From assembly GCF_003334815.1 (NCBI RefSeq), contig NZ_QOWO01000094.1: a DNA stretch of 1,727 nt; one strand, written 5' to 3'. Position 1 is the stretch's first letter; every line of letters begins with the position of its first letter. Shown here in pieces: positions 1 to 1,727 of the stretch. The position numbers and the translations under genes are program-made. The notes below the pieces were generated by a model. That model had not been told where the DNA came from, ran no database searches, and saw only the letters and a program-made list of their open reading frames with translations. This DNA comes from Escherichia coli. GTDB taxonomy: Bacteria > Pseudomonadota > Gammaproteobacteria > Enterobacterales > Enterobacteriaceae.

Positions 1-1727
1 CTATGACAACCGTGGCCGGTTAACCTCGGTGAAAGACGCACAGGGCCGTGAAACGCGGTATGAATACAACGCCGCAGGCGACCTGACTGCCGTTATCACC
101 CCGGACGGCAACCGGAGCGAGACACAGTACGATGCGTGGGGAAAGGCGGTCAGCACCACGCAGGGCGGGCTGACGCGCAGTATGGAGTACGATGCTGCCG
201 GACGTGTCATCAGCCTGACCAACGAGAACGGCAGCCACAGCGTCTTCAGTTACGATGCGCTGGACCGGCTGGTACAGCAGGGCGGCTTTGACGGGCGGAC
301 GCAACGTTATCATTATGACCTGACCGGAAAACTCACACAGAGTGAGGATGAGGGACTTGTCATCCTCTGGTACTACGATGAATCGGACCGTATCACTCAC
401 CGCACGGTGAACGGCGAACCGGCAGAGCAGTGGCAGTATGATGAGCACGGGTGGTTAACCACCCTCAGCCATACCAGTGAAGGCCACCGCGTGTCGGTCC
501 ACTACGGCTATGACGATAAAGGCCGCCTGACCGGCGAATGCCAGACGGTGGAGAACCCGGAGACGGGGGAACTGCTGTGGCAGCATGAGACCGGACATGC
601 GTACAACGAACAGGGGCTGGCAAACCGCGTCACGCCGGACAGTCTGCCGCCGGTGGAGTGGCTGACCTACGGCAGCGGCTATCTTGCGGGCATGAAGCTG
701 GGCGGGACGCCGCTGCTGGAGTTCACGCGCGACCGCCTGCACCGTGAGACGGTGCGCAGCTTCGGCAGCATGGCAGGCAGTAATGCCGCATATAAACTGA
801 CCAGCACATACACCCCCGCAGGCCAGTTACAGAGCCAGCACCTGAACAGCCTGGTGTATGACCGTGACTACGGGTGGAATGACAACGGCGACCTGGTGCG
901 CATCAGCGGCCCGCGACAGACGCGGGAATACGGCTACAGCGCCACGGGCAGGCTGGAGAGTGTGCGCACCCTCGCACCAGACCTGGACATCCGCATCCCG
1001 TATGCCACGGACCCGGCGGGCAACCGGCTGCCGGACCCGGAGCTGCACCCGGACAGTACACTCACAGTGTGGCCGGATAACCGCATCGCGGAGGATGCGC
1101 ACTATGTCTACCGCCACGATGAATACGGCAGGCTGACGGAGAAGACGGACCGCATCCCGGCGGGTGTGATACGGACGGACGACGAGCGGACCCACCACTA
1201 CCACTACGACAGCCAGCACCGCCTGGTGTTCTACACGCGGATACAGCATGGCGAGCCACTGGTCGAGAGCCGCTACCTCTACGACCCGCTGGGACGGCGA
1301 ATGGCAAAACGGGTCTGGCGGCGGGAGCGTGACCTGACGGGGTGGATGTCGCTGTCGCGTAAACCGGAGGTGACGTGGTATGGCTGGGACGGAGACAGGC
1401 TGACGACGGTGCAGACTGACACCACACGTATCCAGACGGTATACGAGCCGGGAAGCTTCACGCCGCTCATCCGGGTCGAGACAGAGAACGGCGAGCGGGA
1501 AAAAGCGCAGCGGCGCAGCCTGGCAGAGACGCTCCAGCAGGAAGGGAGTGAGAACGGCCACGGCGTGGTGTTCCCGGCTGAACTGGTGCGGCTGCTGGAC
1601 AGGCTGGAGGAAGAAATCCGGGCAGACCGCGTGAGCAGTGAAAGCCGGGCGTGGCTTGCGCAGTGCGGGCTGACGGTGGAGCAACTGGCCAGACAGGTGG
1701 AGCCGGAATACACACCGGCGCGAAAAG
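1..1727 (+). CDS. Rhs-family YD-repeat protein, internal core fragment (partial at both ends; reading phase has the first complete codon at nt 2, last complete codon ends at nt 1726). Polymorphic toxin shell/core region; the toxin tip is not in the window.
   Basis: Seen in sequence: the frame starting at nt 2 is open across the entire window (575 codons, no stop), which is why it is missing from a stop-to-stop/ATG-based ORF track. The translation begins [50 protein letters not shown]... and contains repeated xxGxxxRYxYDxxGRL(I/T) units, e.g. [79 protein letters not shown]. Established knowledge: this is the Rhs/YD-repeat signature, and the protein closely matches the E. coli Rhs core as I remember it. 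The paralog (rhsA/B/C/D-type) cannot be assigned from memory, so the symbol is left empty. Confidence 0.95.

Follow-up and report, generated by a model that had tools for sequence, protein, structure and literature searches.

The stretch of Escherichia coli DNA analysed here (1,727 nt; hereafter the window) is an internal piece of the gene for an RHS element core protein. Frame 2 of the plus strand is free of stop codons over all 1,727 nt, and its translation of 575 codons, from a reading frame open at both ends (2..1726, plus strand), corresponds to residues 579–1153 of E. coli RhsD, window aa 1 being RhsD residue 579. Genes for rhsD or "RHS element core protein" in complete E. coli genomes match the whole window at 99.9% nucleotide identity, and the window sequence was recovered from 3872 of 5426 complete genomes, at a median of six places per genome. 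The rhsD gene of isolate F95 (locus L001, NZ_OY754453.1), which encodes 1426 aa, also contains the window at 99.9% nucleotide identity. Relative to F95 RhsD (WP_094284000.1), the window product has two amino-acid differences only, both outside the segment at aa 200–285 that is the subject of this analysis. These differing residues (C vs R and Q vs H) are at aa 180 (nt 539–541) and aa 194 (nt 581–583), in the long hairpin that immediately precedes the segment.

Full-length RhsD scores 2777.5 bits against the NCBIfam equivalog NF041261 (RHS_core), above the curated cutoff of 2000, and belongs to this family. The 575-aa window alone scores 1261 bits, colinear over profile positions 583–1156, and falls below the cutoff because it is a fragment. 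Encoded in the same frame and with a colinear profile match, it shows no substantive difference from E. coli RhsD and is a fragment of that gene family. Four matches to Pfam RHS_repeat (PF05593) at E ≤ 0.001, together with weaker ones, and a match to TIGR01643 (E 2.5e-26) identify the window product as a protein with multiple YD repeats. Outside the window, the same gene carries the Rhs-associated core (TIGR03696, RhsD 1181–1258) with the DPxGL aspartyl autoprotease motif (sequence ...YYDPLQGRYITQDPMGL...IDPMGL). On the 3′ side of rhsD in the F95 genome (L001:6588–7907) we found ybbC (YbbC/YhhH family), then a 5′-truncated pseudogene of an "RHS repeat-associated core domain-containing protein" and then a small ORF. 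Orphan toxin tips accompanied by a putative immunity gene are usually arranged in this way.

Chromosomes of E. coli typically have a GC content of about 0.51. In the window it is 0.55–0.69, well above that value, which is a long-known peculiarity of Rhs cores. A 285-codon antisense ORF occupies minus-strand positions 827–1684, and there are several more of 120–145 codons; these antisense ORFs are most likely by-products of GC-rich (0.63–0.69) coding sequence. At the DNA level we detected no tandem repeats and no Rfam family in the window, and its direct and inverted repeats are short and at chance level only. Explanations at the DNA level were rejected, the periodicity being seen at the protein level only.

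A stretch of the window without canonical YD units

Nucleotides 599–856 (plus strand) translate to AYNEQ...LNSLV, 86 codons. The peptide that had drawn attention to this stretch in the sequence-only reading (YNEQ...VYDRDY) is in fact encoded by nt 602–871, and of the coordinates given with it the start was one codon out and the end five codons. The dipeptide YD is found at window aa 1, 43, 63, 84, 105, 125, 146 and 170, where the canonical units (aa 1–170) are spaced 20–24 residues apart; the next YD is at aa 286. Pfam RHS_repeat matches extend up to aa 178 and begin again at aa 292, and relaxing the threshold to E ≤ 10 gave none from aa 179 to 291. An HMM that we built from 16 canonical RhsD units had no match in RhsD 760–882 (window aa 182–304), and when 23 homologous segments from relatives were compared with Pfam RHS_repeat, none matched at E ≤ 0.1.

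The claim that about 85 aa here lack a canonical YD unit is thus confirmed by the positions of the YD dipeptides, by PF05593, by our own HMM and by the 23 homologous segments. Judged against the single-sequence consensus YDxxGRL[IT], the segment (aa 200–285) would not count as YD repeat units. The failure of the repeat models backs the absence of canonical units but is silent on structure, and since the segment fails every single-sequence repeat model, its assignment as repeats depends on the family profile and on the structural model. Further YD-free gaps of equal or larger size follow downstream (aa 286 to 402 and aa 427 to 603); the segment thus opens the C-terminal half of the shell, which is YD-poor in general, and is not a unique hole in it.

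Profile comparison points to repeats in register

A search of 1.84 billion representatives with RhsD 90–1260 yielded 14,966 proteins at E ≤ 1e-30. We kept 48 colinear relatives, 33–91% identical, and left out rearranged fragments as well as giant multi-repeat proteins that matched through generic repeats only. Many of the 150 best representatives (P0002, P0004, P0006, P0007, P0021, P0032 and others) are not colinear with RhsD, with pieces out of order or duplicated, as could result from artefacts of assembly or of recombination between Rhs paralogues.

The family profile of the segment was aligned by hhalign to that of the canonical block (window aa 1–178) with a probability of 96.5%, an E-value of 7.6e-10 and a score of 56.9 over 73 columns, and the four Y/D/G/R/L positions were aligned. 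By comparison, 60 column-shuffled segment profiles scored 10.3 on average (sd 2.5, max 19.5). A second canonical block (RhsD 419–578) also aligned to the segment profile (probability 81%, E 1.2e-5). In the first alignment, RDRLHRE of the segment is paired with canonical YDAWGKA, and the three other units described below (units 1, 2 and 4) are each paired with a canonical unit, the W of unit 2 standing opposite Y. A 7-residue gap was placed opposite SMAGSNA. At the profile level, the segment (aa 200–285) is thus homologous to canonical YD units and in register with them.

The predicted β-spiral continues through the segment

We modelled RhsD 90–1260 with AlphaFold2 from a 49-sequence alignment, with the window residues spliced into the F95 RhsD context. 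The model has a mean pLDDT of 86.6 and a pTM of 0.79, and successive ten-residue blocks of the segment have pLDDT values of 94, 86, 91, 86, 90, 92, 67, 89 and 91. DSSP assigned eight strands, equivalent to four hairpins, across the segment of the model, with a strand content of 55% vs 59% in the canonical block. From aa −19 to 317, YD-type and distal turns of the model alternate strictly; the connectors run ...Y|DDKGR, E|NPETGE, Y|NEQGL, T|PDSLPP, Y|GSG, L|GG, R|DRLHR, a 9-residue loop after F, Y|TPAGQ, L|NSLVYD, W|NDNGD, S|GPRQ and Y|SATGR. Within the segment, YD-type turns are predicted at aa 202–206, 224–226, 244–248 and 271–275, in a strand–tight turn–strand pattern with a period of about 21 residues. 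The spacing of turn starts is 22, 20, 27 and 22 aa, compared with 20–24 in canonical units.

The boundaries of the first four hairpin units were taken from model DSSP together with hhalign. Unit 1 (572..634, aa 191–211, plus strand) is predicted to consist of a strand ending in GHAY, the turn N202-E-Q-G-L206 and the strand ANRVT, and is a YD unit in which D is replaced by N and R by L; relatives read YDaLG at this place. Unit 2 (653..700, aa 218–233, plus strand) has the predicted strand VEWLTY, a turn of three residues (G224-S-G226) instead of the canonical five, and the strand YLAGMKL. This variant unit is conserved among relatives, with the family consensus WLtYGsGHLHG, and hhalign and DSSP differ by one residue on which position corresponds to "Y" (T222 or Y223). 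Unit 3 (707..763, aa 236–254, plus strand), with the predicted strand TPLLEFTR, the 5-residue turn D244-R-L-H-R248 and the strand ETVRSF, is likewise a conserved variant, with R for Y, H for G and E for L (family F.RDxLHRE). Unit 4 (791..844, aa 264–281, plus strand) is predicted to comprise the strand YKLTSTY, the turn T271-P-A-G-Q275 and the strand LQSQHL, and is a YD unit with D replaced by T and R by Q where relatives read yD.lGRL.

Between units 3 and 4 lies the distal loop GSMAGSNAA (764..790, aa 255–263, plus strand), a 9-residue connector and the sole irregular element of the segment. It corresponds to the one block of lower confidence in the model (block 741–750, pLDDT 67 vs 86–94 around it). 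Its occupancy among divergent homologues is 0.31, and its central 7 columns are gapped in 20 of 24 sequences, with residues present in the other 4. By the alignment, the loop contains an insertion of about 7 residues that is specific to the E. coli lineage.

Unit 4 is followed by the distal connector NSLVYD (845..862, aa 282–287, plus strand), modelled with a 3-residue helical turn in it. The YD dipeptide at aa 286–287, at which the repeats had been thought to resume, is located in this connector and not in a YD-type turn. The YD-type turn that truly comes next in the model is W292|NDNGD, part of unit 5 (863..907, aa 288–302, plus strand), which has the predicted strand RDYGW, the turn N293-D-N-G-D297 and the strand LVRIS, with W at the Y position. 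The region of unit 5 is matched by Pfam RHS_repeat (aa 292–322, E 0.0033).

In structural comparison the model was matched along its entire length by the solved shells of four Rhs proteins: Tse5 (8CP6_B; TM 0.80/0.86, E 1e-85), the Advenella protein (8QJA; TM 0.74/0.85, E 6.5e-69), RhsA (7Q97; TM 0.74/0.83, E 2.0e-68) and Tse15 (8UXT; TM 0.72, E 2.2e-67). By these comparisons the RhsD shell is predicted to adopt the spiral β-hairpin cocoon fold. The sequence-only reading had proposed just such a comparison of the predicted structure with solved shells as its check; in the model the β-spiral continues through the segment in uninterrupted hairpins, an outcome set beforehand as refuting an excursion.

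Two other parts of the window depart from the strand pattern. Within aa 334–367, of which 9% is strand, aa 343–363 (nt 1028–1090) form a 21-residue coil connector after the conserved DPAGNRLP; homologues carry 27–101 residues at aa 334–367, which makes this a variable-length loop region of the shell. Further downstream, aa 496–564 (nt 1487–1693; RhsD ~1074–1142) are a charged stretch with five predicted helices and no strand (65% helix, pLDDT blocks 61–86), which sits between two shell strands and varies in length from 1 to 97 residues in 24 divergent homologues. According to the model, the real non-β excursions of the window are aa 343–363 and aa 496–564, and not the segment.

Conservation of the segment

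Conservation, expressed as bits × occupancy among the 27 sequences less than 50% identical, was 1.88 for the segment vs 1.90 for the canonical block, and the occupancy of the segment in divergent homologues (33–48% identical) was 0.92. The family consensus of the segment reads H.yDaLG.r..t...gLp...WLtYGsGHLHGl.L.G..lldFERD.LHREt.Rrfg(-gap-)...r.yD.lGRL. It has a canonical YD at units 1 and 4, and E. coli has therefore merely swapped D for N and T there.

Ten positions of the segment alignment are at least 90% invariant (G205, Y223, G224, G226, R243, D244, L246, H247, R248 and E249). Most fall in a conserved signature spanning units 2 and 3 (659..748, aa 220–249, plus strand), which ranks third in conservation of all 30-residue windows in the 1171-aa region, as measured over the 27 sequences less than 50% identical. 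It is surpassed only by the window of the DPxGL autoprotease motif and by that of NEN...YD..DRL...GFDGR. The term "degenerate", applied to this stretch in the sequence-only reading, is misleading given the near-identical conservation of segment and canonical block and the rank of aa 220–249 among the three most conserved windows.

As a regular expression, the motif of units 2–3 was found in 24 of the 150 best representatives. The segment profile matched one place per chain in Tse5, RhsA, the Advenella VgrG-Rhs protein and Tse15, with E-values from 1e-15 to 8e-23, and gave weak matches in S. bongori Rhs, Tre23 and RhsP (E 0.002–0.13). Against teneurins and Tc toxins it gave no match at E ≤ 1.

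Among the canonical units, aa 74–99 (nt 221–298; NENG..F.YD..DRL..E.GFDGR), a stretch that includes two of these units, are conserved to the level of the DPxGL window (top-residue frequency 0.68 in sequences less than 50% identical). Judging by the alignment, aa 74–99 appear to be a second position-specific signature within the "generic" repeats.

Comparison with known Rhs, Tc toxin and teneurin shells

The closest solved relative is the Tse5 shell of Pseudomonas aeruginosa (PDB 8CP6; 31% identity). The segment aligns to Tse5 chain positions 673–803, where PPVAWLTYGPGHLHG...LAFERDALHRE is conserved; full-length Tse5 numbers are higher by roughly 47. In the alignments, the E. coli GSMAGSNA loop is matched by Tse5 residues, but the distal connector before it is one residue shorter in Tse5. 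The two proteins differ after window aa 495, and Tse5 carries a different toxin. Its barrel was described as 40 β-hairpins with the consensus YDXXGRLV and marked sequence variability (PMC10684867). In that structure DxxGR forms the turn, with D and R often swapped for N, S, L or Q and Y for H, R, W or F; the Y and L side chains face the cavity, and Y bonds to the L position one unit earlier (PMC10684867).

The segment also aligns to residues 902–1026 of RhsA (7Q97), 1477–1594 of 8QJA and 980–1102 of Tse15 (8UXT). RhsA of Pseudomonas protegens, the Advenella VgrG-Rhs protein and Tse15 of Acinetobacter baumannii each have the YGSGH[LIV]...F.RDxLHRE pair at one orthologous place. Their shells are three-turn β-cocoons, 20–25% identical to RhsD, and their N-terminal domains differ (prePAAR/TMD, a VgrG fusion and a clade domain, respectively). 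RhsA was reported to have 76 antiparallel strands in three turns (PMC8765631), and the Advenella and S. bongori Rhs cores to consist almost wholly of staggered β-hairpins whose YD motif sits where the strand passes into the turn (bioRxiv 10.1101/2024.02.26.582050). The structure papers searched, on Tse5, RhsA, Tse15 and the Advenella and S. bongori proteins, make no mention of the YGxGHL/RDxLHRE residues or of a role for this region. We considered the Glu of LHRE as the nucleophile of N-terminal autocleavage and rejected it; the Glu implicated in this cleavage has been assigned to an N-terminal PVxxxxGE-type motif (E343 in Tse15).

The Tc toxin BC components and the teneurin YD shells have the spiral architecture of YD hairpins in common with the RhsD model. 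They differ from it in being four-turn or otherwise larger, and the TM values are 0.2–0.5. The gene, the fold and the phenomenon of substituted YD motifs are not new in kind, all three being already known.

Discussion

We consider it very likely that nt 599–856 encode four consecutive β-hairpin repeats (aa ~191–281) of the wall of an RhsD-type toxin container, and that these are YD repeats by geometry and ancestry and not by spelling. Homology, register, predicted secondary structure and conservation all favour this reading, the geometry being that predicted by the model DSSP string. In each unit, one strand would end at the "Y" position, a tight turn would replace DxxGR and the return strand would begin at the "L" position. 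Units 1 and 4 (Y|NEQGL and Y|TPAGQ) would be plain lineage substitutions of D by N or T, whereas units 2 and 3 (Y|GSG|YL and R|DRLHR|E) would be an old position-specific variant pair, near-invariant across proteobacterial T6SS-type Rhs shells. By analogy with the description of Tse5, N202 and T271 would stand in for the turn Asp while G205, G226 and G274 retain the turn glycine; in unit 3, R243 at the Y position and E249 at the L position would face the cavity, and H247 would replace the turn glycine.

The strong conservation of units 2 and 3 calls for a reading of its own. The simplest one, and probably the correct one, is that these residues pack locally or pair by charge within the wall. 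Another, compatible with the segment being hairpin repeats, is that units 2–3 (WLxYGxGHL ... F.RDxLHRE, aa 220–249) form a functional site specific to this position in the T6SS-type Rhs containers of proteobacteria. Such a site may be a charged or polar patch on the inner wall that touches the encapsulated toxin or the N-terminal anchor or plug, or it may hold adjacent turns of the spiral together as a latch. The ten near-invariant positions, a conservation comparable to that of the DPxGL autoprotease window, and the replacement of Y, G and L at structural positions by the charged or polar residues R, H, R and E all point in this direction, as does the profile: in each of four T6SS Rhs proteins of solved structure it singles out one place in the chain, three others it matches weakly, and in teneurins and Tc toxins it finds none. 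High conservation can, however, be purely structural, the structure papers searched do not refer to these residues, and the catalytic Glu of N-terminal cleavage is assigned to the PVxxxxGE-type motif and not to LHRE. A functional site of this kind seems to us rather unlikely.

Divergent repeats and a structural insertion had both been suggested for the segment from its sequence. The first suggestion is borne out by the profile register and by the alternating turns of the AlphaFold2 model; of the second, only the 9-residue loop at aa 255–263 with its 7-residue insertion remains. That no repeat model matches the segment, and that this loop has a pLDDT of 67 and a lineage-specific insertion, are what an excursion breaking the β-spiral would have in its favour. 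In the model, eight strands and four hairpins run through the segment with high confidence, however, and hhalign with its shuffled controls places it in register with canonical units. An occupancy of 0.92 in divergent homologues means that the segment is not an insertion, and the true excursions are elsewhere, in the coil at aa 343–363 and the helices at aa 496–564. We regard an excursion at nt 599–856 as very improbable. We give practically no credence to the segment being degenerate filler, that is, repeats decaying under relaxed constraint: in the E. coli lineage, units 1 and 4 have indeed exchanged the canonical D for N and T, but conservation equals that of the canonical block, the invariant positions are present, aa 220–249 rank third in conservation and the segment is retained in homologues just 33–48% identical.

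Recognition of the segment as four hairpin repeats of the container wall removes a false lead, as the YD-free stretch is not an excursion from the shell. It also indicates that the spelling of the motif underestimates the continuity of repeats in Rhs shells: over a third of the window's hairpins escape sequence repeat models and are recovered by profile–profile comparison together with structure prediction. The YGxGHL/RDxLHRE pair could serve as a positional landmark for aligning the shells of T6SS-type Rhs proteins and is a candidate for mutagenesis.
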